A stretch of DNA of 32,000 nt from Microcystis aeruginosa NIES-843 (GTDB lineage Bacteria > Cyanobacteriota > Cyanobacteriia > Cyanobacteriales > Microcystaceae), in the NCBI RefSeq assembly GCF_000010625.1, contig NC_010296.1:5400001-5432000 (forward strand). The letters are read 5' to 3'. The notes beneath the pieces are model-generated. The model was given only the letters and a program-made list of their open reading frames with translations, had not been told where the DNA came from and ran no database searches. This document shows, piece by piece, positions 3,006 to 29,564 of this stretch (position 1 is the stretch's first letter; the number at the start of each line of letters is the position of its first letter). The translations under genes and the position numbers were made by a program.

Positions 3006-3214
3006 ACTGCGGGATACTGACTCATATTAAAATATTTAAAGGCTTAAAAATCCAAGTTTTCGTTGTGGGGACTCCCTCGTCAGAAGTCAGTCATCAATAC
3101 CAAATTAAGTTATACTTCATCTTTATGAGAAAGTCTGTCAATTATCCTAATTGCTAAGGAGGTTAAAAATTGAGACATTTCCTAGTAAAAATCTAACTAC
3201 TTTAAATTGAAAAA

Positions 3215-4108
3215 ATGATCATGTTTAAACGATACGAAGCTGATGAGCAAGTTATATTTCATGGTGATTCTTTGCCGATTTTATCCAGTGAGATTGCCTC
3301 TAATTCTGTAGATCTAATTTTTCTCGATCCTCCCTATAATATAGGTAAGCACTTTGCCGATTTTTACGACAAATGGGAATCGGAAAATGATTATATAAAT
3401 TGGGCAAATCAAATTCTTGATCAGTGTCTTCGCATCTTGAAACCCCAGGGAACATTATATGTTATGGCCAGCACTCAAGCAATGCCTTACTTTGATCTTT
3501 ACTTAAGACAAAAAATGACGATTCTTAGTCGCATTATCTGGCATTATGATAGTTCAGGAGTACAAGCAACAAAATACTTTGGTTCGATGTATGAACCAAT
3601 ACTTCACTGTGTGAAAGATAAAAATAATTACACTTTTAATTCAAAGGATATTAAGATAGAAGCAAAAACCGGAGCAAAACGAAAACTAATTGATTATAGA
3701 AAAGCGATTCCGAGTCAATACAATACAGAGAAAGTACCGGGCAATGTCTGGTATTTCCCTAGGGTAAGATATCGCATGGATGAATACGAAAATCATCCCT
3801 CACAAAAACCTGAATCATTGCTAGAAAGAATTATTTTGGCCAGCACTGACAAGAGTGGAATTGTGCTTGATCCCTTTGCAGGAACTTTTACAGCTGCAGC
3901 TGTAGCTAAACGTTTGGGAAGAATTTCTATTAGTATAGAATCGCAAGAGGAGTATTTAAAAATTGGTCTTCGACGGATTCTCGGATGGCAAGAATACAAG
4001 GAAGAAAAGTTACTACCACCTCAAAAAAGCTATAGTAGAAAAAGCGAAAATAAACAAGAATCTAACTTTGTACAGGAGAGTCTTTTCGATGTCGATAGTC
4101 AAGCATGA
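3215..4108 (+). CDS. Beta-class amino DNA methyltransferase (N6-adenine favoured, N4-cytosine not excluded)
   Basis: 297-aa ORF. Catalytic motif IFLDPPYNIG lies near the N-terminus and AdoMet motif VLDPFAGTFTAAAVAKRLGR near the C-terminus. Motif IV before motif I is the beta-class order. Confidence 0.85.
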   Translation: MIMFKRYEADEQVIFHGDSLPILSSEIASNSVDLIFLDPPYNIGKHFADFYDKWESENDYINWANQILDQCLRILKPQGTLYVMASTQAMPYFDLYLRQKMTILSRIIWHYDSSGVQATKYFGSMYEPILHCVKDKNNYTFNSKDIKIEAKTGAKRKLIDYRKAIPSQYNTEKVPGNVWYFPRVRYRMDEYENHPSQKPESLLERIILASTDKSGIVLDPFAGTFTAAAVAKRLGRISISIESQEEYLKIGLRRILGWQEYKEEKLLPPQKSYSRKSENKQESNFVQESLFDVDSQA

Positions 4109-5168
4109 ATTCACCAAGATAATTATTAAAATTATCGATAATTACTTTCCCAATCAGGGAAATAGCATTTTAAATGCTAGTGAGTTATTGCAATATTTGA
4201 ACATTAAAACTAGAGCCGCTAATCGAGGTTCTAAATCCCGAGCAGGATTGGCTAACCATTATGCCATTTATGTTTTAGTGGAAGACTATATTAATAATGA
4301 GTTTCATCTTAAGGATGGATACGACGAGTATCAAGGCGCTCAGTATATGACACTTTTTCGCAGGCAAAGGGAGCTTCCTTTTGGCGATAAATTACAAAAT
4401 CATGCTCTCAATCATCGATTAAATCAGGAATTTAACAAGTATTTTCCCACTTTATCTTATCTGCCGATAATTAGAGATGTTAAAACCAATAGATACTGGA
4501 TTAATGAGAATTTAATTAAGTTTTCTCTAGAGGGTAATCAAGTTAATATTGCCCTGGTAATTATAGATATAATTGATGCCTATGTGCAAACAAGACAAAA
4601 AGCATTTAATCAATTTATCAGCTATTGTCAACAGATGATTGATATTCAACAGCAAGATCCCCAGAGAGCCATTGAATTTATTCGGAGTTTACTCAGACCA
4701 AACATTGATGCTAGAGTTTTTGAGATTGTCAGTTATGCAATTCTTAAAGAGTATTATGGGGAACGGAAAATATATTGGGGATGGTCGCCTGATCAGTTAA
4801 ACTCTGAATACTTACTTTTATATAAAACTGGTCGAACAAATGCCAATGACGGGGGGATAGATTTTGTCATGAAACCCCTAGGTCGATTTTTTCAAGTTAC
4901 GGAAACGATAGCTGCTGATAAATATTTTTTAGATATTGATAAAGTGCAAAAATATCCCATTACTTTTGTGGTTAAAACCGAGCAGACTTGCGAGGAAATT
5001 TTAGAAAAAGTTGCGGAGCAAGCTAAGATAAGATACAAGATCAGGGCAATTGTCGAAAGATATCTAGAATCGGTAGAGGAAGTGATCAATATTCCCGAAT
5101 TAATCAACCGTTTTGAGCGGGTTTTAGCTCAAGGTAAAGGAGGAGCGGTAATTGCAGAAATGGTTTGA
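4089..5168 (+). CDS. Candidate type II restriction endonuclease (Mrr-like PD-(D/E)xK core suspected)
   Basis: Track ORF 3963..5168 overlaps the MTase by 146 nt. The in-frame ATG at 4089 is preceded by AGGAG (4074..4078) and overlaps the MTase stop by 20 nt, the usual M-R coupling. The protein has FEIVSYAILKEYYG...NDGGIDFVMKP...FFQVTET, which resembles the FE...DGGID...Q.K core of Mrr-type nucleases. The function is otherwise inferred from position. Confidence 0.5.
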   Translation: MSIVKHEFTKIIIKIIDNYFPNQGNSILNASELLQYLNIKTRAANRGSKSRAGLANHYAIYVLVEDYINNEFHLKDGYDEYQGAQYMTLFRRQRELPFGDKLQNHALNHRLNQEFNKYFPTLSYLPIIRDVKTNRYWINENLIKFSLEGNQVNIALVIIDIIDAYVQTRQKAFNQFISYCQQMIDIQQQDPQRAIEFIRSLLRPNIDARVFEIVSYAILKEYYGERKIYWGWSPDQLNSEYLLLYKTGRTNANDGGIDFVMKPLGRFFQVTETIAADKYFLDIDKVQKYPITFVVKTEQTCEEILEKVAEQAKIRYKIRAIVERYLESVEEVINIPELINRFERVLAQGKGGAVIAEMV

Positions 5169-5266: not shown

Positions 5267-6901
5267 ATGACGACCGAAATTGAAAAAGAACTAGAAACCA
5301 GCGAAGCTGTCTTGGAAAAACGGCGAAATTTTGCCATTATCTCCCACCCTGACGCGGGAAAGACCACCCTGACCGAAAAACTGTTACTATACGGGGGTGC
5401 AATCCATCAAGCGGGTGCAGTCAAAGCAAGACGCGACCAACGCAAAGCCACCTCCGACTGGATGGAAATGGAAAAACAACGGGGAATTTCGATTACTTCC
5501 ACGGTTTTACAGTTCGATTATCGTGATTTTCAGATTAATCTCCTCGATACTCCCGGCCACCAAGATTTTAGCGAAGATACCTATCGTACCCTGGCCGCTG
5601 CCGATAATGCGGTGATGTTAATCGACGCGGCCAAAGGTTTGGAACCCCAAACGAGAAAACTCTTTGAAGTGTGCAAACTGCGGCAGTTACCCATCTTTAC
5701 CTTTGTTAACAAAATGGATCGCCCCGGCCGCGAACCTCTGGATTTATTGGACGAAATCGAGCGAGAATTAGGATTACAGACCTATCCCGTCAATTGGCCG
5801 ATCGGAATTGGCGATCGCTTTCGGGGAGTTTTTGATCGAGCCACCCAGACCATACACCTGTTTGAACGTCGCTCCCACGGCTCTCAGGAGGCGCAGGAAA
5901 CCGTGATCGAGCTTGGCGACCCCAAAATTGAGGATTATCTCGAAAAAGACCTGTATTACCAGTTAAAAGAGGATATAGAACTACTCTCGGAATTGGGTGC
6001 AGAATTGGATTTGCCAGCAGTTCACGCAGGAGAAATGACCCCGATCTTTTTTGGTAGCGCCATGACCAATTTTGGGGTGAAATTATTCCTAGAATCCTTC
6101 CTCGACTATGGATTGGCACCCAGAGGACGCAATTCCTCCCTCGGTGTCCTTGATCCCACCTATCCCGATTTCACCGGTTTTGTCTTCAAACTGCAAGCAA
6201 ACATGGATCCCAAACATCGGGACCGGGTAGCCTTTGTGCGGGTATGTACGGGGAAATTCGAGAAGGATATGGTAGTAAACCACGCTAGAACCGGTAAAAC
6301 TATCCGTTTATCCCGTCCTCAGAAACTTTTTGCTCAAGATCGCGCAGTTATTGAAGAAGCTTATCCCGGAGATGTGATCGGATTGAATAACCCCGGGGTC
6401 TTTGCGATCGGTGATACCATTTATATGGGTAAAAAGCTCGAATACGAAGGTATTCCCTGTTTTTCTCCGGAATTATTCGCCTATCTCAGAAATCCTAACC
6501 CTTCCAAGTTCAAACAGTTTCAAAAAGGAGTCTCGGAATTACAGGAAGAAGGGGCCGTACAGATATTATCCTCGATCGATGAATTTAAACGCGACCCGAT
6601 TTTAGCCGCCGTCGGTCAATTACAGTTTGAAGTGGTGCAATTCCGTCTTTTAAGCGAGTACGGAGTCGAAACTACCCTCGAACCCCTAGCCTATAGTTTA
6701 GCCCGTTGGGTCGCCGGGGGTTGGGCCGCTTTAGAAAAAGCAGGTAAACTCTTTAATACTCTAACTGTCAAAGATTACTGGGGTCGTCCCGTCTTATTAT
6801 TCAAAAATGAGTGGAATTTACAGCAAGTCAAAGAAGATCATCCCTCTTTGCAATTAAACTCGATCGCACCGGTAGGATCGGGAGTGCAACCCCAATCCTA
6901 A
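5267..6901 (+). CDS. prfC: Peptide chain release factor 3 (translational GTPase)
   Basis: 544-aa [31 protein letters not shown] (G1), [26 protein letters not shown] (G3), FVNKMDR (G4). Length and N-terminal pattern are typical of RF3. Confidence 0.95.
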
Positions 6902-9123: not shown

Positions 9124-9329
9124 GTTCATCTTATATTTAATTCCACTCACCCACTTAAATGCGCGGGCGGCTGAACTTTAAAATTTATTTTAGTCTATGG
9201 TTACTATTGACAATAACTTAGAGCAAATCGAGAATAAAAGCGAAAAAAACTTTTAGGAAGTATTAAATTTTTAGTACAATGGCGAAAGAATAGGGACAAG
9301 CTCAATTTTTCACTCTCGAACGAGGCTAA

Positions 9330-10448
9330 ATGAAAAGTGCTGACTGTTTAACGGTATCCCCCGGGGAACCGCTTACCGATTGGCAAAAACTGGGATTAGA
9401 TTTGGTGGCTCGTTGGCAGGGACGAGATGTTATCCTAGCGATCGATCTTACCGGTAGTGTTAACTTTAATGATGAAGGACGCACGCGCCTTGGTCAAATT
9501 ATTCGCGATAGTTTAAAAAATAACGATTCGGTTTATTTAGTACCCTTTGCTGATAATGTCCAACCGATTGAAGAACCGATTTTAATTCGCGGAAGGGAAG
9601 ATATAGACGCGGTTTTAAAAGCGATTCCCTGGCAATCTAGCCAAAGTGCTAAAAATACCGATATTCAGCGCGCAGAATGGCACGTTTATCCCCGACTGGC
9701 ACGCTTAAATCAGTGTCGTTTAACTGCCAATCAAGCTATCAAACCCCAGTCGGTAGTTTGGATTACCGATGCACCCCTTTCTACCGCTGCGGGGATTACT
9801 TCCCAACAGTGGATAGAAACCCCAAAAAATAGCCCTTTTCGTCTTGCTAATTCTCCCGAAAGTTTGGAGAGACAAAACTGGCTTAATTCCCTACCAATTA
9901 ATCTAAGAACCCAAGAAATTACCGCCACTAACGGCAATAAATATAAACTATCAGTGGTCGATATTGCTCCCACAGCACAAGAGTTTTGCACTCCCGCACC
10001 GGGAGGACAGGAAACCTGTTTGATTAATTCTTATCTCTTGAGTCAGTTATGGTTGCCAGCATTGGCAATTACATTAATGGGAATTGGGGGAATAGTAGCG
10101 AGTATTTTGGGAATTCGTCATTGGTTGCTGTTAAATACTGCTTGGACTATTAAAGTCTCATCTAATGATGATGAGAATGAAATACAAAGATATACCCTAA
10201 AAACATCCCAAAGAATTAACATCGGTGGGGAAGGAGTTAATACCATTGATTGTCCGGGAGAAGAAACCCGTTGTTATTTAGAAAGACGCGGCAATCAGTT
10301 ATATCTGAAACCCAGTAAACAAGCAGAGATTTTTTATCGAGGTAATCAACTAACTCAGGAGGTGAAGATAGATAAAAATTACCTGACTTTAACCTATCAC
10401 CATAACCATCAAGATTTCGACCTACAAATTCAGATTAGGAAAAAATAA
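9330..10448 (+). CDS. vWA-domain membrane protein with a C-terminal beta-rich (weakly FHA-like) domain
   Basis: 372-aa ORF. DVILAIDLTGSVNF (MIDAS-like DxTxS), SVYLVPFADNV and VVWITDAPLS fit the vWA strand pattern (aa ~33-215). One TM helix, LWLPALAITLMGIGGIVASILGI (aa ~240-262). The C-terminal ~100 aa read RINIGGEG..IDCPG...CYLERRGNQLYLKP...IFYRGNQL, which is FHA-like in spacing but lacks the canonical Arg/Ser/His. Confidence 0.6.
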   Translation: MKSADCLTVSPGEPLTDWQKLGLDLVARWQGRDVILAIDLTGSVNFNDEGRTRLGQIIRDSLKNNDSVYLVPFADNVQPIEEPILIRGREDIDAVLKAIPWQSSQSAKNTDIQRAEWHVYPRLARLNQCRLTANQAIKPQSVVWITDAPLSTAAGITSQQWIETPKNSPFRLANSPESLERQNWLNSLPINLRTQEITATNGNKYKLSVVDIAPTAQEFCTPAPGGQETCLINSYLLSQLWLPALAITLMGIGGIVASILGIRHWLLLNTAWTIKVSSNDDENEIQRYTLKTSQRINIGGEGVNTIDCPGEETRCYLERRGNQLYLKPSKQAEIFYRGNQLTQEVKIDKNYLTLTYHHNHQDFDLQIQIRKK

Positions 10449-10466: not shown

Positions 10467-13400
10467 ATGGCTAACACCAGTCAAACCCGCGCTATCAAAC
10501 GGACAATTATCATCGGATTAGGTGGTACTGGTCGAGATGTGTTGATGAGAATTCGTCGCTTTATTATTGATAAATACGGGAAGTTATCTAACCTACCCGT
10601 TGTCAGTTTTGTTCATATTGACACAGATAAAAATGCTTTCAATGGTTCGGGTTTACCCACAGGAAATAGCTATCACGGAGAAGAAATTATTCTATCAGCT
10701 GCCGAAAGAGTATTCATTAATATGAATGCTCAGGATGTTAACAATCTCACCTATGAACTTGAACACCAAACCCTTTTTGAAAGTCCCTTTTCCCATATTG
10801 AAAGCTGGTTAGACCCAAGGCTAAAAAAACAAATAACTTCCATTGAAAATGGTGCGGGGGGTATTCGTCCCGTCGGTCGTTTAGCTTTCTTCCATAACTA
10901 TCAAAAAATTCAAGAGGCAATTGAAGCAGCGGAAAGACGAACTTCTGGTCATGAATCCTTTATGTTTAGCGGTAAAGTTAATGGTCAAAGTTTTAATGTC
11001 CAAGAGGGTTTAAATGTCTTTGTTGTCGGTTCTTTGTGTGGGGGAACTGGTAGCGGTATTTTCCTCGATGTGGCCTACACTTTGCGTCATATTTTACAAC
11101 AAACCGCCGAATATACATCCTTTGGTTATTTGGTAATTAGTCCTAAACTTTATGGTGATGGTGCAATTATGAGAGCTAATACCTATGCAGCTTTGAAAGA
11201 GTTAGATCATTATACCAATGAAAGTAATTCCTTTCAAGTCTGTTATGATAAACAAAATTTCGTCAACATCGATGAAAAACGTTCTCCTTTTGATTTTGCC
11301 TACTTAGTTTCTAATCGCACTGCGGGAGATTACCGGATTAATAACAAAGGTAAATTATGTAATGTCATTGCTTACAAGATTTTCTTGGATTTTGCCGATG
11401 AGTTATCTCCTCGCATCAAAGGCAATCGGGATAACTATAAAAACTCGATGATTAGTCCAGATAATCATCCTTTTCAGATGTGTCAAGGTTATATGTCCTT
11501 TGGACTAGCGAGGATTTATTTTACTCGCGACCGAATTGTGCAGATTGGTCTCAATCGTTTTACGCTCAAGTTAATTAAATTTTGGTTAGAGGGATACGGT
11601 CAAAGTCCCAGTGGACAAGAGTTATTAAGTAAGTTCCTAGCTAATTGGAGTACCCAAAGTAATAAGGATTATTTTACTGCCAGATTGGAAGAAGCAACCC
11701 TAGAGAATAATAAAACTTTTTCTAAGACTTTAACCTCTTGGAAAAATTCCCTAGAGGAAGAAATATCTAATAGTCAAGATTTGGAGAATTTACCCCAAAC
11801 CGTCAAGCAATCCCTAGAAAAAGAGTTTCGCAAAGTACAGGGGGGAGAAACAGATAGCAGTCGCGGAATCTGGTTAACTCTGACCCAACAAACTCAACCT
11901 AAATTAATCGAAAAATTTAAGTCAGATATTGACCAATTTTTGGAGATTCTTCTTAATCCTGATAGCTTAGAATTTTCTTTGGAAAATAGCCTATCTTTTT
12001 TGGTCGCTTTACAAGTACAGATTAATACCTACAAGGGTAATCTAGAGGAATTATCTCAGGATAATAAAGGGTTTCATTCCTCGGAAAAAATTGATAACAT
12101 TTGGCGAAATGTTAAACAAACTCTCGAAGATATAAACGGGAAAAAGTCTGTCTTCAAGATGTTCAGTAAAAATGCCAATAGCGAGAAAATCAAAGCTGAG
12201 TTAAGAGACTACGTTCAAAGCGGACAAAAATTAATTCAGCATAACTTTAATTTCAGCATCAATGGGGAATCCAGAAAGATTGTTGAAGCGATTCTCAAGC
12301 ATATTTCTAGTCGAATGCTGCAGATACAACAACTGAAAGAAACCCTATATCAGCTAATCACAGAATACGATAAATACGAACAGGAGTTAATGCAGTTAAA
12401 TCTCGACGAGATGACTGGGGAAGCTATTTTCCCAGAGGAGAATATTGATAACTGTATCCCTGACAGTAACTCCCGAACTCAATACATTTCCGTTAGCCAA
12501 AAAGTCACCAATAATTTAGGCTATAATACTTCCCTATTCAGTTTATTTAGCCAATCTTTTGTTATTGATAATGAAACTCTCAAAGAGAACCTAACAGCAA
12601 CAATCGAGAAACAGTTTCAATCAGTAAGCACTAATAAAATTGATGCAGTAATTAAGCGATTTATGGGTCAATATAAACCCCATGATTTTCCTGAACGTTT
12701 GGCGCAAATTTTGCGAGAAGCTGATTTAATGTTACCGATAAATGTTAATGATGCTTACTATCGCTTGCATCCAGATAAAAAATTACTAATTGGGACTAAG
12801 GACGATAATTCACCCACCATGCAAAGATTTATGAAGACTATTGAATCTGATTTAAATATTAATCGGGGGACTTCTTTTGAATCAATTCAAACGGACGAAG
12901 AAATCCTAATTACCTACGAGTTTGGTGGGTTTCCCCTAAGAATCATTACTGATTTATCTGGGTTACAAAAAATCTATCAAGACCAAAAGAGAATCAGCAT
13001 TTTACATAATGATTACAGGATAGATTTTGCTGATATTATCCCACCACCTGCCAAATTAATTGAGGAATTAGAGTTTATTTTCTATCCCGCAATTGCTCTC
13101 GGTTTACTAGAATACGATGAGGAAGATGATACTTATCAATTAGTCATCGAAGGCGATTTATTTAACAATAAGTCCATCATTGACATTAGCGGTAATTGGC
13201 GACTTGCTTTAGAACAATTTGCTTCTCGTAAGGACATGATTAATGCTTTGCAGGTACTGCTTAATCAGGCAAAAAATGAGATTTTGGCTAATCCTCCTCT
13301 ATTATTTACTAACGAGGGTGATTATTTCCAGAAGGTCAGCTATTTTGTCAACAATGTCAAAAATTTACCCGACCATCACCCCAATTATCGCTACAAAGAT

Positions 13401-13616
13401 AAGGTAGTTGGACAAGATGGAAATCATATACAGGAGGCAAAAGAAGGAATTATCACCCGTTTTGTTAATCAACTGAAAATGGAACTAGAAAAACGTGCTG
13501 CTGAACAGAAAAAACTCGAAAAACAACAGCAAAAGCAACAAACTTTACTGGGAACAAATAATAACAGTAGTCAACCCAGTTTACCCGCAGAGATTAGCAC
13601 TGCTGATGAATTGTAA
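10467..13616 (+). CDS. Tubulin/FtsZ-superfamily GTPase-like protein with a ~750-aa non-tubulin extension
   Basis: 1049-aa ORF; AGGAG sits ~10 nt upstream. IIIGLGGTGRDV (T1-like), ENGAGGIRPVGRLAFF (T3-like) and VFVVGSLCGGTGSGIFLDVAY (aa 192-197 GGTGSG, matching the tubulin signature GGGTGSG). The remainder is helical or coiled, with a Gln-rich tract and a disordered tail ending in ADEL. Confidence 0.75.
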   Translation: MANTSQTRAIKRTIIIGLGGTGRDVLMRIRRFIIDKYGKLSNLPVVSFVHIDTDKNAFNGSGLPTGNSYHGEEIILSAAERVFINMNAQDVNNLTYELEHQTLFESPFSHIESWLDPRLKKQITSIENGAGGIRPVGRLAFFHNYQKIQEAIEAAERRTSGHESFMFSGKVNGQSFNVQEGLNVFVVGSLCGGTGSGIFLDVAYTLRHILQQTAEYTSFGYLVISPKLYGDGAIMRANTYAALKELDHYTNESNSFQVCYDKQNFVNIDEKRSPFDFAYLVSNRTAGDYRINNKGKLCNVIAYKIFLDFADELSPRIKGNRDNYKNSMISPDNHPFQMCQGYMSFGLARIYFTRDRIVQIGLNRFTLKLIKFWLEGYGQSPSGQELLSKFLANWSTQSNKDYFTARLEEATLENNKTFSKTLTSWKNSLEEEISNSQDLENLPQTVKQSLEKEFRKVQGGETDSSRGIWLTLTQQTQPKLIEKFKSDIDQFLEILLNPDSLEFSLENSLSFLVALQVQINTYKGNLEELSQDNKGFHSSEKIDNIWRNVKQTLEDINGKKSVFKMFSKNANSEKIKAELRDYVQSGQKLIQHNFNFSINGESRKIVEAILKHISSRMLQIQQLKETLYQLITEYDKYEQELMQLNLDEMTGEAIFPEENIDNCIPDSNSRTQYISVSQKVTNNLGYNTSLFSLFSQSFVIDNETLKENLTATIEKQFQSVSTNKIDAVIKRFMGQYKPHDFPERLAQILREADLMLPINVNDAYYRLHPDKKLLIGTKDDNSPTMQRFMKTIESDLNINRGTSFESIQTDEEILITYEFGGFPLRIITDLSGLQKIYQDQKRISILHNDYRIDFADIIPPPAKLIEELEFIFYPAIALGLLEYDEEDDTYQLVIEGDLFNNKSIIDISGNWRLALEQFASRKDMINALQVLLNQAKNEILANPPLLFTNEGDYFQKVSYFVNNVKNLPDHHPNYRYKDKVVGQDGNHIQEAKEGIITRFVNQLKMELEKRAAEQKKLEKQQQKQQTLLGTNNNSSQPSLPAEISTADEL

Positions 13617-13713: not shown

Positions 13714-15375
13714 ATGGCATTATTTAACCTTTTTCCTCCCTATCTGATTGTTTTAACTCTAGTCTTGGTTATTTTTCCCACCGTCTTAGCTGTGGGAATC
13801 CGGATGACTCTCTATAAATATCTCCAAGATTCAACTGTAAAAGTCAAGGGTTTAATTCCGGGAACAAGTCTCAAGGGTTCACCTAAAATTATTTCTAATC
13901 TAGAGAATAGATTTAAGATAGCCAGTAGTCAACTAGATGATGTTAATACCGCAGCTTTGGTGGATGGTTTATACCATGAAGAAAAATTTACTTTCATGTC
14001 TAAATCCCTCAGCTGCGAGAAATGGGATTATTTTGTGAGAGTGTTACCCAATCTCCTCCTCGCTTTTGGTTTGTTGGGAACTTTCTTCGGAATTACTCTC
14101 AATCTGACGGGAATCAGCACACTTATCGATATCAATAATGTCGATATGCAAAGTTTGGGAGAAAAGCTCAAAACTCCCCTAGAAAGTATGGGGATTGCTT
14201 TTATCACTAGCTTAATTGGTTTAGCTTGTAGTTCTTTACTGACTGTGATTAACTTAATCTTTAACACCAACCTTGCTAAAGTAAATCTAATTAGTTCCCT
14301 AGAAGACTATTTAGATAACATCTTGCAGCCGACTGTAGAAGGGAATAGTCGCTTGGATAAAGCGGTTAATCGCATGGTGGATACACAGAAAGCATTTCTG
14401 ACTAACTTTCATAGCGAGGTGACGAGAGTATTAGAATCTTCTTTAGAGAAAGTTGCTAAAGAAATTGCTGATGGTAATCAGGAAACCGCTAAGTTAGTCA
14501 CCCAGGTTTGTGAAAGATTAACTGAAACTGCGGGAACCTTATCTACCGGTGCGACGACTTTTCAGCGTTCAGCTTTTGAACTTAACGAGCAAGTACCAAT
14601 TATCACGCAAGCAAACCGAGAGTTTACACAATCCTCTCAGGAACTAAAAAATAGTGTACTGCTTTTTAAACAAGCATCAGAGTTAATTGAAAAAAGTAAC
14701 TTCTCTGGTAATATCGAAAGGTTTACCGCTAGTTTAGCAGAAACCCAAGGAAGATTCTCTCAATCCACTGCAATACTAGAGCAGAATATCGGGGAGATTA
14801 TCAGCAGTAATAAAAGAGCTAACGATTTAGCAGAACAAGTGTATTTAAATATCCAAGAATCTTCTCAAAAATTACAAAATAGTGCGCTAGGTTTTCTGGA
14901 AGCTTCCGAAAAAATCGAAAGTAGTCAATTTGCCAATAAGTTAGTGCAAGCAACCGCAGATTTAATGACTGCTCATCAACAGTTTGCCGATTCTACTACA
15001 GATTTAAACCAATCAACTCAATCTCTAGCTTCTTTAACTCAAGACTTCCACCGTTCAATGACAACTATGGTTGAGTTAGGAATAAAAATTACTGACTTGA
15101 ATCAAAAATCTGAGACAATCCTAGAACAAAATCAGCAACGCTCAGTCACCGAACAAGAAAAGTTATCTAACATCCAGGGAGAATTAGTAAAATTAATCGA
15201 AACCGTGAAAACCTATCAAGACAGTTTTAACTCCGAGTCGAAACAATTAGGAAACCAACTTATCAATAGTCTCGAGGAAAAACTCCCCCAAACCTCCGAT
15301 AAAATCCTCACTGCTTCCCATGGCATTGAGCGCTCTAGTAATAATCTCGATCACCGAACAAGAAAAGTTATCTAA
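13714..15375 (+). CDS. MotA/TolQ/ExbB-family channel protein with a long helical tail (ZorA-like); N-terminal fragment of a gene interrupted by a frameshifting duplication
   Basis: 553-aa ORF. N-terminal TM helix (YLIVLTLVLVIFPTVLAVGI), then LLLAFGLLGTFFGITLNL and MGIAFITSLIGLACSSLLTVINLIF, matching the conserved GLLGT..G and A..T..GL helices of MotA/ExbB/TolQ. The rest is helical repeat sequence. The ORF ends at a TAA (15373..15375) 22 nt past the junction of a perfect 205-bp duplication. Confidence 0.75.
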   Translation: MALFNLFPPYLIVLTLVLVIFPTVLAVGIRMTLYKYLQDSTVKVKGLIPGTSLKGSPKIISNLENRFKIASSQLDDVNTAALVDGLYHEEKFTFMSKSLSCEKWDYFVRVLPNLLLAFGLLGTFFGITLNLTGISTLIDINNVDMQSLGEKLKTPLESMGIAFITSLIGLACSSLLTVINLIFNTNLAKVNLISSLEDYLDNILQPTVEGNSRLDKAVNRMVDTQKAFLTNFHSEVTRVLESSLEKVAKEIADGNQETAKLVTQVCERLTETAGTLSTGATTFQRSAFELNEQVPIITQANREFTQSSQELKNSVLLFKQASELIEKSNFSGNIERFTASLAETQGRFSQSTAILEQNIGEIISSNKRANDLAEQVYLNIQESSQKLQNSALGFLEASEKIESSQFANKLVQATADLMTAHQQFADSTTDLNQSTQSLASLTQDFHRSMTTMVELGIKITDLNQKSETILEQNQQRSVTEQEKLSNIQGELVKLIETVKTYQDSFNSESKQLGNQLINSLEEKLPQTSDKILTASHGIERSSNNLDHRTRKVI

Positions 15376-16679
15376 CATCCAGGGAGAATTAGTAAAATTA
15401 ATCGAAACCGTGAAAACCTATCAAGACAGTTTTAACTCCGAGTCGAAACAATTAGGAAACCAACTTATCAATAGTCTCGAGGAAAAACTCCCCCAAACCT
15501 CCGATAAAATCCTCACTGCTTCCCATGGCATTGAGCGCTCTAGTAATAATCTCGATGTGACTAATGCTAACTTGTCTCAGTTAATTGATACAGTGACAGA
15601 GCAACTTACTCAAGTCTCTGAGACAATCCTAGAACAAAATCAGCAACGCTTAGTCACCGAACAAGAAAAGTTATCTAACATCCAGGGAGAATTAGTAAAA
15701 TTAATCGAAACCGTGAAAACCTATCAAGACAGCTTTAACTCCGAGTCGAAACAATTAGGCAATCAACTTATCAATCGTCTTGAGCAAAGACTCTCCCAAA
15801 CCTCCGATAAAATTCTCACTGCTTCCCATGGGATTGAGCGCTCTAGTAATAATCCAGAGGTGACTAATGCTAACTTGTCTGAGTTAATTGATACAGTGAC
15901 AGAGCAAGTTACTCAAGTCAAGGAAGGCTTACAGTCTGAGTTAAACCAATCAACTCAATCTCTAGCTTCTTTAACTCAAGACTTCCAGCGTTCAATGACA
16001 ACTATGGTTGAGTTAGGAATAAAAATTACTGACTTGAATCAAAAATCTGAGACAATCCTAGAACAAAATCAGCAACGCTTAGTCACCGAACAAGAAAAGT
16101 TATCTAACATCCAGGGAGAATTAGTAAAATTAATCGAAACTGTGAAAACCTATCAAGACAGTTTTAACTCCGAGTCGAAACAATTAGGAAACCAACTTAT
16201 CAATCGTCTTGAGCAAAGACTCTCCCAAACCTCCGATACAATTCTCACTGCTTCCCATGGGATTGAGCGCTCTAGTAATAATCTCGATGTGACTAATGCT
16301 AACCTGTCTCAGTTAATTGATACAGTGACAGAGCAAGTTACTCAAGTCTCTGAGAAAATCCTAGAACAGAATCAGCAACGCTCAGTCACCGAACAAGAAA
16401 AGTTATCTAACATCCAAGGAGAATTAGTAAAATTAATCGAAACTGTGAAAACCTATCAAGACAGTTTTAACTCCGAGTCGAAACAATTAGGAAACCAACT
16501 TATCAATAGTCTCGAGCAAAGACTCTCCCAAACCTCCGATAAAATCCTCACTGCTTCCAATGCAGTTGAGCGCTCTAGTAATAATCTCGATGTGACTAAT
16601 GCTAACCTGTCTCAGTTAATTGATACAGTGACAGAGCAAGTTACTCAAGTCAAGGAAAGCTTACAGTCTGAGTTAAACC
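15004..16679 (+). repeat. Near-identical 732-nt (244-codon) super-repeat, two copies, each made of a 429-nt and a 303-nt subunit
   Basis: ttaaaccaatcaactcaatctctagc recurs at 15004 and 15941 (spacing 937 = 732+205), and ttaaacc recurs at 16673 (spacing 732). The caccgaacaagaaaag subunit starts at 15147, 15352, 15655, 16084 and 16387 (later spacings 429 and 303). Confidence 0.9.
15147..15556 (+). repeat. Perfect 205-bp tandem duplication (15147..15351 and 15352..15556)
   Basis: Both copies read caccgaacaagaaaagttatctaacatccaggg...gcgctctagtaataatctcgat with no mismatch that I could find. 205 is not a multiple of 3. Confidence 0.9.
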
Positions 16680-17257
16680 TTTTAAGCAATAACTTAGGGA
16701 TGGTAGTTGATGATAAATTAACTAAGAACTCAGAACAATTAAAAGCAGTTTCCCAATCTATTGAGAAAACAGCCAATCAATTTGGCAGCCTTAAATCAGA
16801 TTTTTCTCAAGTAATTAACGCGGTGAACACCAACACCAGTCAATTAACCGCTAACTTAGAATCTTTGCGAGATAAGTTAGAGAAAGTTATCGCTAAGGAA
16901 AATAAATCGAATCAGAAAATGATTGAACACATCTATGGAGAAATTCAAAAATGTTTAGCAGAACTGGAGAAAATTAACGATATGCGTTCTGACTTTTCTA
17001 ATTTAAATGATAAGATAGAAAAACTTTTTGAGACAATCCCTAATCCTGCTCAAAAAAATGTTCAGGATGACATTTATAAGTTAAATAAGAAGTTGGAAGA
17101 ACTTAAAAAACTTTTTGAGACAATCCCTAATCCTACTAAAAAAGATGTTCAGTCTGACTTTTCTAACTTAAAGGATAAGATAGAAAAACTTTGTGAGACA
17201 ATCCCTAATCCTACTCAAAAAGATGTTCTGGATGACATTAACACCCTATTTGAATAA
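15320..17257 (+). CDS. C-terminal tail fragment of the same MotA/ZorA-like gene (+1 frame relative to 13714..15375)
   Basis: 645-aa ORF. Its first 11 codons (MALSALVIISI) are an out-of-frame reading of duplication copy 1. From 15352 it reads the same repeat sequence as the upstream ORF (TEQEKLSNIQGELVKLIETVKTYQDSF...). Removing one 205-bp copy fuses 13714..17257 into a single 1112-codon ORF (3544-205 = 3339 nt = 1112 codons plus stop). Confidence 0.7.
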   Translation: MALSALVIISITEQEKLSNIQGELVKLIETVKTYQDSFNSESKQLGNQLINSLEEKLPQTSDKILTASHGIERSSNNLDVTNANLSQLIDTVTEQLTQVSETILEQNQQRLVTEQEKLSNIQGELVKLIETVKTYQDSFNSESKQLGNQLINRLEQRLSQTSDKILTASHGIERSSNNPEVTNANLSELIDTVTEQVTQVKEGLQSELNQSTQSLASLTQDFQRSMTTMVELGIKITDLNQKSETILEQNQQRLVTEQEKLSNIQGELVKLIETVKTYQDSFNSESKQLGNQLINRLEQRLSQTSDTILTASHGIERSSNNLDVTNANLSQLIDTVTEQVTQVSEKILEQNQQRSVTEQEKLSNIQGELVKLIETVKTYQDSFNSESKQLGNQLINSLEQRLSQTSDKILTASNAVERSSNNLDVTNANLSQLIDTVTEQVTQVKESLQSELNLLSNNLGMVVDDKLTKNSEQLKAVSQSIEKTANQFGSLKSDFSQVINAVNTNTSQLTANLESLRDKLEKVIAKENKSNQKMIEHIYGEIQKCLAELEKINDMRSDFSNLNDKIEKLFETIPNPAQKNVQDDIYKLNKKLEELKKLFETIPNPTKKDVQSDFSNLKDKIEKLCETIPNPTQKDVLDDINTLFE

Positions 17258-17279: not shown

Positions 17280-17921
17280 ATGTCTAGACGTACCTACTAC
17301 CGAGATGAAGATAAATCGGTGGATGTTTATCCCGCATTTACCGATTTAATGTCCAATGCTTTCATGATTCTGAGTTTATTTCTCCTCTTGGCACTTTTTC
17401 AGTCCTATAATCTCATCAGCAAACTGGAGGAAGCTAACCGAAAACTGCAAACAGCAACCCCGATAGTTATCGATGAAAAATCAGGAAAATTCAAATTTCA
17501 GTCGGGAAGTGCTGAATTAAACCCTGCTTTAAAAACCTATATTCGTCAGCGCATTATTCCCGCTATCGAAACCATTACCAAAGACAGAGAAATCGACTTT
17601 ATTCAAGTAATTGGACACACCGATGGACAGGGAATACAAAAGACAAGTAATCTCGATAAAAATATCGAATCGGTTGCCAGCAGAAAACAATCTGTTAAAA
17701 TGCTAGTACCCGGTTCTAACACTGATTTAGGATTAATGCGAGCTTTAGCAGTAGTGCAAGAAATCGAAAACACAGGTAAACTCAAAAACGTCAAATTTCG
17801 AGCTTTTTCCGCAGGACAGTTATACCTCCCATCGGGTAACTTAGCTGCGGTTAATCGTGACGCAGATGCAAGCAGACGCAGAATTGAAATCCGTTTTATT
17901 CCCCCTGGTAGAAAACAATAA
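17280..17921 (+). CDS. MotB/OmpA-like stator partner (ZorB-like): N-terminal TM helix with a conserved Asp, plus an OmpA-type peptidoglycan-binding domain
   Basis: 213-aa ORF starting 22 nt after the tail gene. YPAFTDLMSNAFMILSLFLLLALF carries Asp22 (gat, 17343..17345) at the position of the protonatable MotB Asp. The C-terminal part reads VIGHTDGQG...DLGLMRALAVVQEI...RRRIEIRF, the OmpA-like pattern. Confidence 0.8.
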   Translation: MSRRTYYRDEDKSVDVYPAFTDLMSNAFMILSLFLLLALFQSYNLISKLEEANRKLQTATPIVIDEKSGKFKFQSGSAELNPALKTYIRQRIIPAIETITKDREIDFIQVIGHTDGQGIQKTSNLDKNIESVASRKQSVKMLVPGSNTDLGLMRALAVVQEIENTGKLKNVKFRAFSAGQLYLPSGNLAAVNRDADASRRRIEIRFIPPGRKQ

Positions 17922-18248: not shown

Positions 18249-18656
18249 ATGACTCTTTGCGACGCTTCTCCACTTATTGCCTTAATTAATGAAGCTGATA
18301 AAAATCATCAGCGTTGTGTTGACATTTTATCTTCGCTATCGGCCCCCCTTGTCACGACTTGCGCTTGTTTTACCGAAGCAATGTATTTATTGCGTCGATA
18401 TGGTGGTTGGTTCGCACAACAAGAATTATGGGGTTATGTGGTAGATGAAATACTGGTAATACACCATCATAATTCAGATGAACTAAAAAGAATGGAAACC
18501 TTAATGATACAATATCAAGATGTTCCTATGGATTTAGCAGATGCTTCTTTAGTAGCCATGGCTGAAGTTCTTAATCAAAAACAAATATTCACTCTCGATA
18601 GCGATTTCTATATTTACCGACGGTATGGAAATCAACCTTTTGAGGTTGTACCTTAA
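18249..18656 (+). CDS. PIN-domain ribonuclease toxin (VapC-like)
   Basis: 135-aa ORF with four acidic PIN positions in the expected spacing: MTLCDASPLIAL, CFTEAMYLL, DLADASLVAMAE, FTLDSDF. Confidence 0.85.
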   Translation: MTLCDASPLIALINEADKNHQRCVDILSSLSAPLVTTCACFTEAMYLLRRYGGWFAQQELWGYVVDEILVIHHHNSDELKRMETLMIQYQDVPMDLADASLVAMAEVLNQKQIFTLDSDFYIYRRYGNQPFEVVP

Positions 18657-18670: not shown

Positions 18671-19231
18671 CTAGAGGGTGACATCCTCGTATAAATCCCG
18701 AAAAGATGCCTTCAGATTAATACTCTGCAAACTAAAACTTTCTTCCTGATAGGTTTGCAGAATCCATAAACCCTGTTCACCCCGTCGAAAAGTTTCCACT
18801 CGTTGGTGTTTACTATTCACTAAGACATATTCCTCTAAACTTTCTAGAGTTTGATAATCATTAAATTTATCACCCCTGTCAAAAGCTTCTGTGGAATCGG
18901 AGAGAACTTCGATAATCAATTTAGGAAAACTTTTGTAGGTAGCGGTTTCTCTATCTCTGTTATCGCAGGTGACAATAATATCAGGATAATAAAAGTGATT
19001 GCGTTTCTCTAATCTGACTTTCACATCGGCAAAATAAACCCGACAATCGGAACCCCGCAAATGATTACGAATGAGAAAAGTGAAATTGAGTCCGATAATA
19101 TTATGAGTATCCGTTGTCCCTGCCATGGCGTAAACTTGTCCATCGATATATTCATGTTTAATGGGACTTTTTTCTTCAAACTGAAGATATTCTTCTGGAG
19201 TGAGATTATTATAGTTAGATAAAGCAATCAT
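18671..19231 (-). CDS. Uma2-family (DUF820) PD-(D/E)xK endonuclease, copy 1
   Basis: 186-aa ORF. EEYLQFEEKSPIKHEYIDGQVYAMAGTTDTHN...YFADVKVRL...YPDIIVTCD...PKLIIEVLSDST...DRGDKFNDYQTL..LEEYVLV is the typical Uma2 pattern. Confidence 0.85.
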   Translation of the reverse strand: MIALSNYNNLTPEEYLQFEEKSPIKHEYIDGQVYAMAGTTDTHNIIGLNFTFLIRNHLRGSDCRVYFADVKVRLEKRNHFYYPDIIVTCDNRDRETATYKSFPKLIIEVLSDSTEAFDRGDKFNDYQTLESLEEYVLVNSKHQRVETFRRGEQGLWILQTYQEESFSLQSINLKASFRDLYEDVTL

Positions 19232-19257: not shown

Positions 19258-19848
19258 TTAAGTACTTTCGGGAGTATCATTAACCGTTTCTAGGGTGACA
19301 TCCTCGTATAAATCCCGAAAAGATGCCGTCAGATTAATACTCTGTAAACTAAAACTTTCTTGCTGATAGGTTTGCAGAATCCATAAACCCTGTTCACCCC
19401 GTCGAAAAGTTTCTACTCGTTGGTGTTTACTATTCACTAAGACATATTCCTCTAAACTTTCTAGAGTTTGATAATCATTAAATTTATCACCCCTGTCAAA
19501 AGCTTCTGTAGAATCGGAGAGAACTTCGATAATCAATTTAGGAAAACTTTTGTAGGTAGCGGTTTCTCTATCTCTGTCATCGCAGGTGACAATAATATCA
19601 GGATAATAAAAGTGATTGCGCTTCTCTAATCTGACTTTCACATCGGCAAAATAAACCCGACAATCGGAACCCCGCAAATGATTACGAATAATTGTGTATA
19701 TATTCCCCGAAACAATATTATGAGTATCCGTCGTTCCTGCCATGGCGTAAACTTGTCCATCGATATATTCATGTTTAATGGGACTTTTTTCTTCAAACTG
19801 AAGATATTCTTCTGGAGTGAGATTATTATAGTTAGATAAAGCAATCAT
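19258..19848 (-). CDS. Uma2-family (DUF820) PD-(D/E)xK endonuclease, copy 2 (tandem paralog)
   Basis: 196-aa ORF nearly identical to copy 1, offset by 617 bp, except for an 8-codon replaced patch and a 10-aa C-terminal extension. Confidence 0.85.
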   Translation of the reverse strand: MIALSNYNNLTPEEYLQFEEKSPIKHEYIDGQVYAMAGTTDTHNIVSGNIYTIIRNHLRGSDCRVYFADVKVRLEKRNHFYYPDIIVTCDDRDRETATYKSFPKLIIEVLSDSTEAFDRGDKFNDYQTLESLEEYVLVNSKHQRVETFRRGEQGLWILQTYQQESFSLQSINLTASFRDLYEDVTLETVNDTPEST

Positions 19849-20141: not shown

Positions 20142-22061
20142 ATGACAACCCTAATTGACTATTCAAATATTCAATCTTTACCCGAAGTTTGGTCAATAGT
20201 TGCCCAACGTTTCCCCAATATTATCGCCCTGCACGATCCCCACAGTAAACCGGAAGTAATTCTCACCTATCGGGAACTTTATCAACAAATTCAGCAATTT
20301 GCCGCCGCTTTGCAAGCATTAGGAGTCACAGAAACCGAAAATGTCGCTTTATTTGCCGATAATAGTCCCCGGTGGTTTATTGCCGACCAAGGTTCCATGG
20401 CAGCCGGGGCTGCCAATGCGGTACGATCTGCTCAAGCAGATGCAGAGGAATTAGCCTATATTCTGGCCGATAGTGACAGTCAGACGCTGATTGTCGAAAA
20501 TAACAAAACTTTAGGGAAATTACTGGCGAAAATCCCTGAATTGCCCCTAAAATTAATCGTGCTGCTCACCGACGAAGACCCCGCTACTGGGGCGATTTCC
20601 GTGCAGACCTTAAATTTCAAGCAACTAATGGCGATCGGGGCTGAGAACACCCTTAAACCCATCACCAAGAGCGAAAATGATCTGGCTACCCTCATCTACA
20701 CATCGGGAACGACGGGACAACCAAAAGGGGTGATGCTAAGTCACGGTAATCTGCTGCATCAGGTACGCAACTTAAATGCTATCTTTCAACCGGATCCTGG
20801 CGATCGAGTTTTAAGTATACTACCTTCATGGCATTCCTACGAGCGCAGTTGTGAGTATTTCAGTCTAGCTCAGGGTTGCACCCAGATTTATACCAGTATT
20901 CGCACTTTTAAGTCCGATTTAAAGCAATTTAGTCCGCAATTAATGGTGGGAGTTCCCCGTCTTTGGGAATCTCTTTACGAGGGTATCCAAAAACAATTTA
21001 GCGAACAATCGGCCACAAAACAGAAATTAGTGAGATTTTTGCTAGAAAAGTCGGAAAAGTACGTTATTGCTAAACGTATCGCCGATAATCTCAGTCTAGA
21101 TCATCTTCACGCTTCCGAGATCGAAAGACTAAAAGCAAGAATTCAATCCCTCTTACTCTATCCCCTCCATGCCATCGGTGATAAGCTAGTTTATGGCAAA
21201 ATTCGCCAAGCAGTGGGAAATAAAGTTAAAATCTTGGTTAGTGGCGGTGGTTCCTTAGCCAGACATCTAGATACTTTCTATGAGATTGCCGGAATCCCGA
21301 TTTTAGTTGGTTATGGACTGACAGAAACTTCTCCTGTGGCTACCGTCCGTCGTATCGATCATAACCTGCGCGGGTCTGCCGGTCGTCCCGTCTTTCAGAC
21401 AGAAATCTGTATTGTCGATTTACACAGCAAAGAAGTCTTACCGACAGAAAAACACGGTTTAGTCTTGATTCGCGGTCCGCAGGTGATGCAGGGATACTAT
21501 AAAAAACCGGAAGCAACCGAAAAAGCGATTTCTCCCGATGGTTGGTTTGATAGCGGTGATATTGGTTGGTTAACCGCTGCCGGGGATTTAGTCTTAACTG
21601 GACGGGCCAAAGATACAATTGTTTTGAGCAATGGTGAAAATATCGAACCGCAACCGATTGAAGATGCTTGTTTACGCAGTCCCTTTATCTCCCAAATTAT
21701 GCTAGTGGGACAGGATCAAAAAGCTTTGGGGGCTTTGATCGTGCCTAATCTTGATATACTGGCCAATTGGGCGCAAGAACAGAAAATATCCTTAAATTTA
21801 CCCGATCTTCACAGCGATCGCTCAACGATTCTTTCTAGCGATCTCTACAGCAAAAAAGTCTTAGCTCTCTACCAACAAGAATTAAAGCGCGAGGTAAGAA
21901 ATCGGCCCAGTTATCGTACCGATGACCAGATTAAAACCTTTGAGTTAATTTTAGAGCCTTTTTCCCAAGAAAACGGCATGATGACCCAAACTTTAAAGAT
22001 TAAACGACCGGTAGTAACGCAACGCTATCGCGATATGATTAACGAGATGTTTGCCAAGTAA
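20142..22061 (+). CDS. aas: AMP-dependent long-chain fatty acid ligase; in cyanobacteria this single FadD-like gene is the acyl-ACP synthetase
   Basis: 639-aa ORF. AMP-binding motif YTSGTTGQPKGVMLSHGNL, GYGLTETSP, FDSGDIGW, LTGRAKD. The N-terminus resembles my memory of the Synechocystis Slr1609-type Aas. Confidence 0.85.
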   Translation: MTTLIDYSNIQSLPEVWSIVAQRFPNIIALHDPHSKPEVILTYRELYQQIQQFAAALQALGVTETENVALFADNSPRWFIADQGSMAAGAANAVRSAQADAEELAYILADSDSQTLIVENNKTLGKLLAKIPELPLKLIVLLTDEDPATGAISVQTLNFKQLMAIGAENTLKPITKSENDLATLIYTSGTTGQPKGVMLSHGNLLHQVRNLNAIFQPDPGDRVLSILPSWHSYERSCEYFSLAQGCTQIYTSIRTFKSDLKQFSPQLMVGVPRLWESLYEGIQKQFSEQSATKQKLVRFLLEKSEKYVIAKRIADNLSLDHLHASEIERLKARIQSLLLYPLHAIGDKLVYGKIRQAVGNKVKILVSGGGSLARHLDTFYEIAGIPILVGYGLTETSPVATVRRIDHNLRGSAGRPVFQTEICIVDLHSKEVLPTEKHGLVLIRGPQVMQGYYKKPEATEKAISPDGWFDSGDIGWLTAAGDLVLTGRAKDTIVLSNGENIEPQPIEDACLRSPFISQIMLVGQDQKALGALIVPNLDILANWAQEQKISLNLPDLHSDRSTILSSDLYSKKVLALYQQELKREVRNRPSYRTDDQIKTFELILEPFSQENGMMTQTLKIKRPVVTQRYRDMINEMFAK

Positions 22062-22122
22062 ATATTTCTGGCAAATATTCCCTAACCCCTTGACAAAAAG
22101 ACCTTTTTAGGATAAGCAAATC

Positions 22123-29561: not shown

Positions 29562-29564
29562 TTT

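Follow-up and report, generated by a model that had tools for sequence, protein, structure and literature searches.

The stretch of DNA considered here, referred to as the window, comprises 32,000 nucleotides (nt) of Microcystis aeruginosa NIES-843 (contig NC_010296.1, positions 5,400,001 to 5,432,000, forward strand); genome coordinates equal window coordinates plus 5,400,000. Within it, an open reading frame (ORF) at 10467..13616 on the plus strand was found in an ORF check of the window to begin with ATG and to encode a protein of 1049 amino acids (aa). This protein is a very divergent relative of tubulin and FtsZ and a member of the FtsZl1 (Tubulin_2) family. Its gene is the second of a cassette of four on one strand, in the order vWA-like, FtsZl1, ZorA-like and ZorB-like, with gaps of 18, 97 and 22 nt between them:

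9330 to 10448, plus strand: MAE_58760, an ORF directly upstream of FtsZl1, encoding a membrane-anchored, weakly vWA-like protein of 372 aa
10467 to 13616, plus strand: MAE_58770, FtsZl1, 1049 aa
13714 to 17257, plus strand: ZorA-like gene (MAE_58780 plus MAE_58790, ‘B7’), as two ORFs, 13714-15375 and 15320-17257
17280 to 17921, plus strand: MAE_58800, ZorB/MotB-like gene, 213 aa (PADLOC ZorB1, E = 9.2e-10; Pfam OmpA, E = 9.8e-5)

The four genes are tightly associated. Only these four families recur over 80 cyanobacterial loci, each being present at 69-79 of them, and the next flanking family is found in 13. Among evaluable loci, i.e. those with enough flanking sequence, the vWA-like gene lies directly upstream of FtsZl1 in 71/73, the ZorA-like gene adjoins FtsZl1 in 62/63 and both Zor-like genes follow it in 60/63.

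PF13809 corresponds to the FtsZl1 family of Makarova and Koonin (2010, Biol Direct 5:33; PMC2875224). Additional file 5 of that study names the gene at 10467-13616 as MAE_58770, FtsZl1, by locus tag and coordinates, and the supplement gives the following entries in genome coordinates:

MAE_58760, 5409330..5410448, 372 aa: vWA (COG2304)
MAE_58770, 5410467..5413616, 1049 aa: FtsZl1
MAE_58780, 5413804..5415375, 523 aa: B7
MAE_58790, 5416004..5417257, 417 aa: B7
MAE_58800, 5417364..5417921, 185 aa: OmpA family (COG1360)

The family, the Pfam model and the exact gene, MAE_58770, are already known. As a member of the family described in 2010, with the same long helical C-terminal extension, a length of ~1000 aa and the same neighbours in the supplement, the protein itself does not differ from that description, which is updated here by a fold model, an alpha/beta domain and the recognition of ‘B7’ as ZorA-like. 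In an independent search the MAE_58770 protein was found in four Microcystis genomes at 94-96% identity, and the NCBI label on FtsZl1 homologues is ‘tubulin-like doman-containing protein’. The GTPase region of FtsZl1 is represented by 4707 clusters (50% identity) at E <= 1e-3 and by 2156 at E <= 1e-10, and among the 150 best cluster representatives lengths of 900-1200 aa predominate. Close relatives are present in at least 570 species-representative genomes, and the best 80 are all cyanobacterial. Of all branches of the tubulin superfamily, FtsZl1 has probably diverged the most. A second FtsZl1 paralogue of NIES-843, MAE_54080 (1078 aa, genome 4968984..4972220), lies outside the window and is given in the PMC2875224 supplement without conserved neighbours.

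The GTPase region and the C-terminal two thirds

Pfam Tubulin_2 (PF13809) matches aa 14-370 of the protein with E = 8.1e-101 and 338.2 bits, against a cut-off of 27, and covers positions 1-355 of the 356 of the model. An earlier reading of the letters without database searches (the sequence-only reading) had claimed a 1049-aa ORF of the tubulin/FtsZ superfamily with three glycine-rich motifs; the ORF and all three motifs were found where it had placed them, and the superfamily claim agrees with both the full-model Tubulin_2 match and the structural matches described below. The domain map that emerges is as follows; its part for the C-terminal two thirds is new:

aa 8-352, 10488..11522, plus strand: tubulin/FtsZ-fold GTPase region, from model secondary structure, Foldseek and Tubulin_2
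aa 17-24, 10515..10538, plus strand: T1 loop GLGGTGRD, aligning with IGVGGGGGN of E. coli FtsZ
aa 129-138, 10851..10880, plus strand: T3 loop GAGGIRPVGR, aligning with GAGANPEVGR of E. coli FtsZ
aa 192-197, 11040..11057, plus strand: T4 loop GGTGSG, the tubulin signature, aligning with GGGTGTG of E. coli FtsZ
aa 354-760, 11526..12746, plus strand: helical region in the model, pLDDT mostly > 85, including a helix of ~76 residues (aa 568-643)
aa 772-1027, 12780..13547, plus strand: C-terminal alpha/beta domain, from the model and family conservation
aa 1029-1049, 13551..13613, plus strand: disordered Gln/Asn/Ser-rich acidic tail, pLDDT < 50

The predicted elements of the GTPase region are, in order:

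S1 8-18, H1 19-37, S2 46-52 and a family-specific insert at ~59-128
H3 134-159, S4 176-189, H4 194-210, S5 216-223 and H5 233-250
a beta-hairpin insert 256-270, S6 277-281 and helices 294-310 and 314-329
a loop 330-341 and a 10-residue S7-like strand 342-351 containing the invariant G346

The tubulin signature was sought as [SAG]GGTG[SAT]G in loop T4 together with glycine-rich T1 and T3 loops in canonical order, and GGTGSG and both other loops are present in that order. Motif conservation was scored over 120 diverse family members sharing only ~20% identity. In this set G19, G22, G192 and T194 are invariant, whereas G17, G20, G193, G195, S196 and G197, as well as the T3 residues G129, A130, R134 and R138, are at least 90% conserved; in a separate alignment of 68 sequences G192-G195 are invariant. 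Since they are invariant or at least 90% conserved at such low identity, the glycine-rich motifs are, on the evidence of these alignments, not chance strings. Alignment of the N-terminal family profile with E. coli FtsZ by hhalign gave E = 0.0099 (the FtsZ query was validated by 808 bits over residues 1-383 against FtsZ chains in the PDB). The confidently aligned blocks, all in register with FtsZ, are T1 (IGLGGTG in FtsZl1, IGVGGGGGN in E. coli FtsZ), S2/T2 (VSFVHIDTD and VEFFAVNTD, respectively), T3, S4/T4 (VFVVGSLCGGTGSG and VFIAAGMGGGTGTG, respectively) and S5/T5, in agreement with the T1, T3 and T4 assignments of the sequence-only reading. FtsZl1 may bind and hydrolyse GTP.

An AlphaFold2 model built on the diverse 68-sequence alignment reached a predicted local distance difference test (pLDDT) score of 90.7 and a predicted template modelling (pTM) score of 0.83, the latter implying that the 1049-aa protein forms one compact body. 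An earlier run on 30 close cyanobacterial homologues had given a poor N-terminal domain (pLDDT 64). A high-confidence fold model of FtsZl1 is new here. When the model was searched against the PDB with Foldseek, 110 hits were obtained at E <= 1e-3, the best being CetZ1 (4b46; E = 1.8e-7), and the best 50 were all CetZ, FtsZ, BtubA, tubulin or gamma-tubulin, with probability 1.00. Template modelling (TM) scores normalised to the target were 0.33-0.53, as would be expected if only the N-terminal GTPase domain were matched. Among the viral models of BFVD, phage FtsZ/tubulin-like proteins were among the best matches (probability 1.00), mixed with weak, unrelated helical ones. In this predicted structure, the N-terminal domain has the tubulin/FtsZ fold. 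The sequence-only reading had named beforehand the lack of any profile or structural match to this fold as the result that would count against it; matches of both kinds were obtained, and the assignment to the tubulin superfamily therefore stands.

The same evidence bears on the proposal that the glycine-rich motifs come from another P-loop or Rossmann family and resemble tubulin by accident. Pfam Tubulin (PF00091) does touch only aa 183-251, with E = 2.9e-5 and 24.9 bits against a gathering threshold of 33, and when PDB sequences were searched with a profile built from 30 full-length homologues, neither a tubulin nor an FtsZ chain came up. Nevertheless, the proposal is refuted by the Tubulin_2 match, by the best 50 structural matches and by the five nucleotide-binding elements that align with FtsZ in the correct order and register, and its chance of being right is regarded as negligible. 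In its N-terminal fold and in loops T1-T5, including GGTGSG, MAE_58770 is like FtsZ, CetZ and tubulin, but it shares only ~15% identity with them and carries inserts of ~70 and ~20 aa and ~700 extra residues. The NIES-843 genome presumably keeps a normal ftsZ elsewhere.

The sequence beyond the GTPase domain had been described as unrelated helical or coiled sequence. It is indeed helical over aa 354-760, but it is not unrelated, since it is conserved in the family and includes an alpha/beta domain. Over the C-terminal ~700 aa, hundreds of cyanobacterial homologues align along 95-100% of the length at 42-50% identity. The alpha/beta domain contains the motifs E-[FY]-x-G-F-P-L-R (818-825), Y837, L-H-N (846-848) and D-I-I-P-P (856-860); even at ~20% identity, Y837 and H847 are at least 90% conserved in the family alignments and GFPLR appears in the consensus. 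No Pfam, NCBIfam or PDB sequence match was found for this domain (aa 772-1027). In its fold the helical region weakly resembles ClyA-type pore-forming toxins, TelA and dynamin (probability 0.2-0.8, E > 0.01), a likeness rejected as the generic similarity of long helices.

The protein ends in ...LEKQQQKQQTLLGTNNNSSQPSLPAEISTADEL (...STADEL), and the Gln-rich, disordered acidic tail described in the sequence-only reading is present, with a pLDDT indicating that aa 1029-1049 are probably disordered. Most cyanobacterial homologues (e.g. P0007, P0010, P0022) run, at columns ~1100-1173 of the alignment (A1), past a disordered linker into a SHOCT domain (PF09851) of ~30 aa, whereas the Microcystis clade stops before it, at ...STADEL. 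As judged from the alignment, the acidic tail is specific to this clade, so that its likeness to the partner-binding tails of FtsZ and tubulin, drawn in the sequence-only reading, is at most tentative.

Partner genes and surroundings

The two genes downstream of FtsZl1 resemble the stator genes of Zorya. The ZorA-like protein has a membrane core of MotA/ExbB type (GLLGTFFGI, AFITSLIGL), in which the channel motifs GLLGT and AF.TSL.GL are conserved among orthologues, followed by a long coiled-coil tail with 101-aa repeats. The core, encoded by the first ORF, matches PADLOC ZorA1 with E = 1.2e-15, whereas Pfam MotA_ExbB reaches only 0.015, and the second ORF, encoding the tail, matches PADLOC ZorA models with E = 8.6e-14. 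A profile of 27 orthologous N-terminal regions was compared with the PDB, in which ZorA and ZorB entries were identified from PMC11890865. The best match was the type I ZorA of Shewanella (8vvn_C, 8e-8), followed by E. coli ZorA (1e-4 to 7e-4); ZorA chains alone were significant, and no MotA, PomA, ExbB or TolQ chain was matched. In the ZorB-like protein, Asp22 is invariant among orthologues and lies in a near-invariant stretch, FTDLMSNAF, at the start of the transmembrane helix, and the OmpA-like peptidoglycan-binding domain conserves the motifs GHTD...RRRIEIRF. The orthologue profile again found Shewanella ZorB best in the PDB (8vvn_B, 7.9e-7). Single-sequence phmmer searches of the FtsZl1 neighbours against the PDB gave nothing useful, and the matches came with orthologue profiles. 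By these profile comparisons the ‘B7’ and ‘OmpA-like’ partners are a ZorAB-type stator pair tightly linked to the FtsZl1 clade, an assignment that is new here; for the ZorA-like gene, what the profiles indicate is similarity to ZorA, not curated membership.

In NIES-843 the ZorA-like gene is split by a perfect tandem duplication of 205 bp (15146-15350 and 15351-15555; genome 5,415,146-5,415,555), reported by Tandem Repeats Finder with period 205 and 100% match. Its length, 205 bp, is not divisible by three, so that the reading frame is shifted and the gene is divided into two ORFs; deletion of one copy in silico restores a single ZorA-like ORF of 1112 aa. The recognition of this duplication as the cause of the split is new here. 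The tail is also expanded by 303-bp (101-aa) repeats, at 15351-15919 and 16046-16651. Across orthologues the tail adds ~300-900 residues to the protein, whose length is 481-792 aa elsewhere in cyanobacteria, 738 aa at two further Microcystis loci and 1112 aa here with one copy removed. The duplication may have truly inactivated the gene, may reflect variation in length mediated by the repeats, or may be an artefact of assembly. Because of the frameshift, the four-gene module may be impaired in NIES-843, and since the strain is viable, the ZorA-like gene is taken to be dispensable.

The gene upstream of FtsZl1 is less easily placed. MAE_58760 matches Pfam VWA_2 below threshold (E = 0.046), but a D39-x-T41-x-S43 motif, resembling a metal-ion-dependent adhesion site (MIDAS), is invariant in its orthologues. 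The protein has a single hydrophobic segment at ~aa 240-270 and a conserved C-terminal part. An invariant cysteine pair, Cys220/Cys230 (EFCTPAPGGxETC), lies just before the hydrophobic segment, and there is no signal peptide. The C-terminal ~100 aa are beta-rich and, by eye, possibly FHA-like, without Pfam support. A TTGACA-17-GAGAAT site is found at 9207-9235, upstream of this first cassette gene; promoter and terminator scans of the window gave counts at or below chance.

Outside the cyanobacterial clade, distant FtsZl1 genes occur in a variety of contexts. Some are found alone; others lie next to vWA and Ser/Thr kinase genes, with a periplasmic binding protein and a two-component system, or with HSP70, GrpE, TPR and vWA genes. 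A metagenomic locus (L084, 444-9363) carries Gly-zipper, caspase-like Peptidase_C14, FtsZl1, TPR, TM2 and CHAT genes, and on plasmid pTHEOS01 of Thermus oshimai (L090, 3667-13318) the order is TROVE, vWA, tubulin-like, a hypothetical protein of 677 aa and the BREX Lon-like protease BrxL; both neighbourhoods are defence-like. On plasmid 2 of Deinococcus deserti (L089, 5315-14556), FtsZl1 is followed by a 411-aa protein and then by an OmpA-family protein. The 411-aa protein is MotA/TolQ/ExbB in the PMC2875224 supplement, while RefSeq now calls it hypothetical; these neighbours suggest that the stator association recurs outside cyanobacteria, with a much shorter tail. At another metagenomic locus (L086), a PIN gene and a small upstream ORF are inserted directly after the FtsZl1 homologue.

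The remaining genes of the window are of several kinds:

1611 to 3005: C5 cytosine DNA methyltransferase
3215 to 4108: N4/N6 DNA methyltransferase
3963 to 5168: overlapping ORF of 401 aa without a family match
5267 to 6901: release factor RF3
18249 to 18656: VapC/PIN-like ORF (NCBIfam Mtu_PIN_fam E = 7e-5, below cut-off)
18671 to 19231 and 19258 to 19848, minus strand: two tandem genes for Uma2-family putative endonucleases, after the VapC/PIN-like ORF
20142 to 31970: AMP-binding acyl-CoA synthetase-like gene, YlqD, DUF3370, NFACT/RqcH-like gene, glycine-cleavage T protein and TPR-trypsin-like peptidase

The genes at 1611-5168 may together be a restriction-modification cluster, lying ~4 kb upstream of the cassette. 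Those at 20142-31970 are ordinary housekeeping genes, and there is no obvious defence island on that side of the cassette. RF3 is the only P-loop GTPase near the cassette, from which two unrelated genes separate it. It was considered as a ‘distinct GTPase’ of the FtsZl1 operon and rejected, being a standard translation factor that is unlinked to the cassette in other genera.

Possible function of the cassette

The four genes are read here as encoding a single membrane-associated machine, in which a ZorAB-type stator is coupled to a GTP-gated assembly of FtsZl1 and the vWA-like protein serves as membrane partner. This reading is given slightly better than an even chance. MAE_58770 would be a cytoplasmic GTPase fused, within one compact body, to a helical bundle of ~400 aa and an alpha/beta domain of ~250 aa. 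As in Zorya, the ZorA-like and ZorB-like subunits would make up a 5:2 stator that is driven by protons, anchored to peptidoglycan and extended into the cytoplasm by a long coiled-coil tail. FtsZl1 would bind GTP and, in company with the vWA-like protein, either assemble at the membrane or change its conformation there. The motor tail might control FtsZl1 assembly, or FtsZl1 assembly might control the tail; in either case the module would link a nucleotide-gated assembly in the cytoplasm to the state of the cell envelope. From the data available, self-assembly of FtsZl1, physical coupling of the four proteins and a biological role are matters that we infer.

The comparison with Zorya rests on the two downstream genes, one resembling ZorA in its MotA-like core and long coiled-coil tail and the other resembling ZorB in its transmembrane Asp and peptidoglycan-binding domain. 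According to published work, ZorAB is a motor of 5:2 composition that runs on protons, and it needs its tail for the recruitment or activation of cytosolic effectors (PMC11946911, PMC11890865). Zorya types I-III carry ZorCD, ZorE or ZorFG, whereas the cassette has no equivalents of these and contains a tubulin-like GTPase and a vWA-like protein instead. Searches for Zorya, ZorA or ZorB together with tubulin or FtsZ found no paper tying FtsZl1 to Zorya. A second comparison is with the tubulin-vWA-GTPase operons that Kaur, Burroughs, Iyer and Aravind (2020, eLife 9:e52696) read as conflict systems. These likewise place a tubulin homologue with a C-terminal helical extension beside a membrane vWA protein, and occur preferentially in multicellular or colonial prokaryotes. 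However, they are defined by GTPases of the GAP1-N2 or DO-type TRAFAC families, often with HSP70 or FNIII, and the cassette has none of these: no linked GAP1-N2 or DO-type TRAFAC GTPase is present among its four recurring families, none of which is a P-loop GTPase. MotA-type stators are mentioned 0 times by Kaur et al. (eLife 9:e52696).

Makarova and Koonin proposed a different role for FtsZl1, in membrane remodelling (PMC2875224). Applied to the whole module, their hypothesis describes a housekeeping cytoskeleton for membrane remodelling or envelope maintenance, not immunity, and as such it is thought rather unlikely. In its detailed form, the vWA-like protein would tether GTP-dependent FtsZl1 filaments at the inner membrane, and a MotAB-type stator would power or position them, an arrangement considered equally unlikely. 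Vesicle formation, thylakoid or envelope biogenesis and peptidoglycan-linked processes are its conceivable uses, each named with equally limited expectation. Besides its publication, several findings favour a housekeeping module. One gene order is kept over Chroococcales, Pleurocapsales, Oscillatoriales and Nostocales, and identity tracks taxonomy. The ratio of nonsynonymous to synonymous substitution rates (dN/dS) among Microcystis strains is 0.20-0.34 for FtsZl1, 0.20-0.33 for the vWA-like gene, 0.31-0.65 for the ZorA-like gene and 0.04-0.10 for the ZorB-like gene, so all four are under purifying selection; the values for FtsZl1, the vWA-like gene and the ZorB-like gene count in favour of the coupled machine as well.

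A number of observations, some of which equally favour the housekeeping alternative, weigh against the reading of the cassette as a Zorya-like coupled machine. The cassette looks vertically inherited and near-ubiquitous in cyanobacteria, which is unusual for defence systems. By tblastn, no FtsZl1 match was found in phage genomes, and plasmids yielded only nine distant relatives, on megaplasmids. The cassette contains no helicase, nuclease, HNH or toxin effector gene, and its neighbourhood in the window consists mostly of housekeeping genes. Neither FtsZl1 nor the vWA-like protein has a PADLOC match (nor one in NCBIfam or PHROGs). The ZorAB-like genes stand last in the operon, whereas zorAB stands first in canonical Zorya, and the ZorA-like gene scores 33.9 bits with NCBIfam ZorA_3, for which the cut-off is 250. 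The vWA assignment of MAE_58760 appears weak, since a vWA model is touched, and weakly, by only 2/23 of its orthologues and no PDB profile match was obtained. Gene linkage is the sole ground on which the four proteins would be physically coupled. Finally, literature searches with PF13809 and the locus tags found no experimental study of the family, in accordance with its earlier description as essentially uncharacterised experimentally.

On the other side, the stator subunits resemble ZorA and ZorB of Zorya more closely than they resemble any stator of motility or Ton/Tol systems. The length of the ZorA-like tail is strongly variable, and the dN/dS of this gene is 0.31-0.65. The gene is frameshifted, and so dispensable, in a viable strain. 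Relatives of FtsZl1 lie in conflict-type neighbourhoods, and the genes flanking the cassette differ between genera; each of these points speaks against a purely housekeeping function. On account of the ZorAB-specific similarity, the variable tail, the conflict-type contexts of the relatives and the dispensability in NIES-843, an anti-invader, Zorya-like role is slightly preferred to one in housekeeping membrane remodelling.

A further point against the coupled machine concerns the region beyond helix H5. No reliable alignment of FtsZl1 with FtsZ was obtained by hhalign past H5; the T7 loop could not be placed, H8 is likewise not alignable and no FtsZ_C or Tubulin_C match was returned by the Pfam scan. 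The sequence-only reading had recognised neither a canonical C-terminal domain nor a T7 loop, and Makarova and Koonin found the T6-H7-T7 region and the C-terminal domain of FtsZl1 to be non-alignable as well (PMC2875224). As the T7 loop and the canonical activation domain are not identified, GTP hydrolysis stimulated by polymerisation is not assured. FtsZl1 might instead be a non-polymerising GTP-binding switch or scaffold, in which the tubulin fold acts as a nucleotide sensor in a monomer or closed oligomer that forms no cytomotive filament. In addition to the missing alignment, this is consistent with the compact 1049-aa model, the extra domains of which could occlude the longitudinal interfaces, and with target-normalised TM-scores confined to a match of the N-terminal GTPase domain; moreover, PMC2875224 names ‘does not form filaments’ as one possibility for FtsZl1.

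Against a non-polymerising switch, all characterised members of the tubulin/FtsZ superfamily polymerise, as noted in the authors’ response in PMC2875224, and conserved polar residues are found where a T7-like element would sit. The candidate T7-equivalent region, between the H7-like helices and the S7-like strand, is:

aa 321-335, 11427..11471, plus strand: RDNYKNSMISPDNHP

Residues from S6 to just past the S7-like strand were counted in the 120 diverse family members, with the following result:

N283: kept in 87/120
A302: kept in 98/120
D/E308: kept in 97/120
R321: kept in 103/120
N323: kept in 101/120, with D in 14 more
D332: kept in 80/120, plus 10 N and 8 E
G346: kept in 120/120
P353: kept in 106/120

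On this conservation, a T7-equivalent element would most plausibly involve R321, N323 and D332, and their naming as candidate catalytic residues is new here. Furthermore, the predicted order of elements (strand 342-351, helix 354-375, the helical insertion, strand 772-778, helix 783-796 and strands 804-807 and 812-822) matches S7-H9-S8-H10-S9-S10 of the C-terminal domain of FtsZ. According to the model, FtsZl1 could possess an FtsZ-like C-terminal domain that the helical insertion divides in two. A switch that never polymerises is considered improbable.

If the coupled, membrane-associated machine is indeed what the cassette encodes, it may be a fourth kind of ZorAB-based machine, in which a ZorAB-type rotary motor, anchored to peptidoglycan and driven by protons, would control through its long tail the GTP-dependent assembly of a tubulin-fold protein at the membrane, with a vWA-like anchor; this extension is put forward only tentatively. 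Its output would be a cytoskeleton-like polymer and not a nuclease, serving either an anti-cyanophage response or a motor-driven bacterial tubulin system, a suggestion that must itself be considered doubtful. No new family is added by the present analysis, but the fold model, the candidate residues and the ZorAB-type partners sharpen the question of what FtsZl1 does. If correct, the proposal would give FtsZl1 its first assigned function and would, for the first time, connect a tubulin homologue functionally with a 5:2 ion motor. A functional link between FtsZl1 and ZorAB would join the field of the bacterial cytoskeleton with that of ion-driven 5:2 motors and Zorya immunity, and would matter for bloom-forming Microcystis and its cyanophages.

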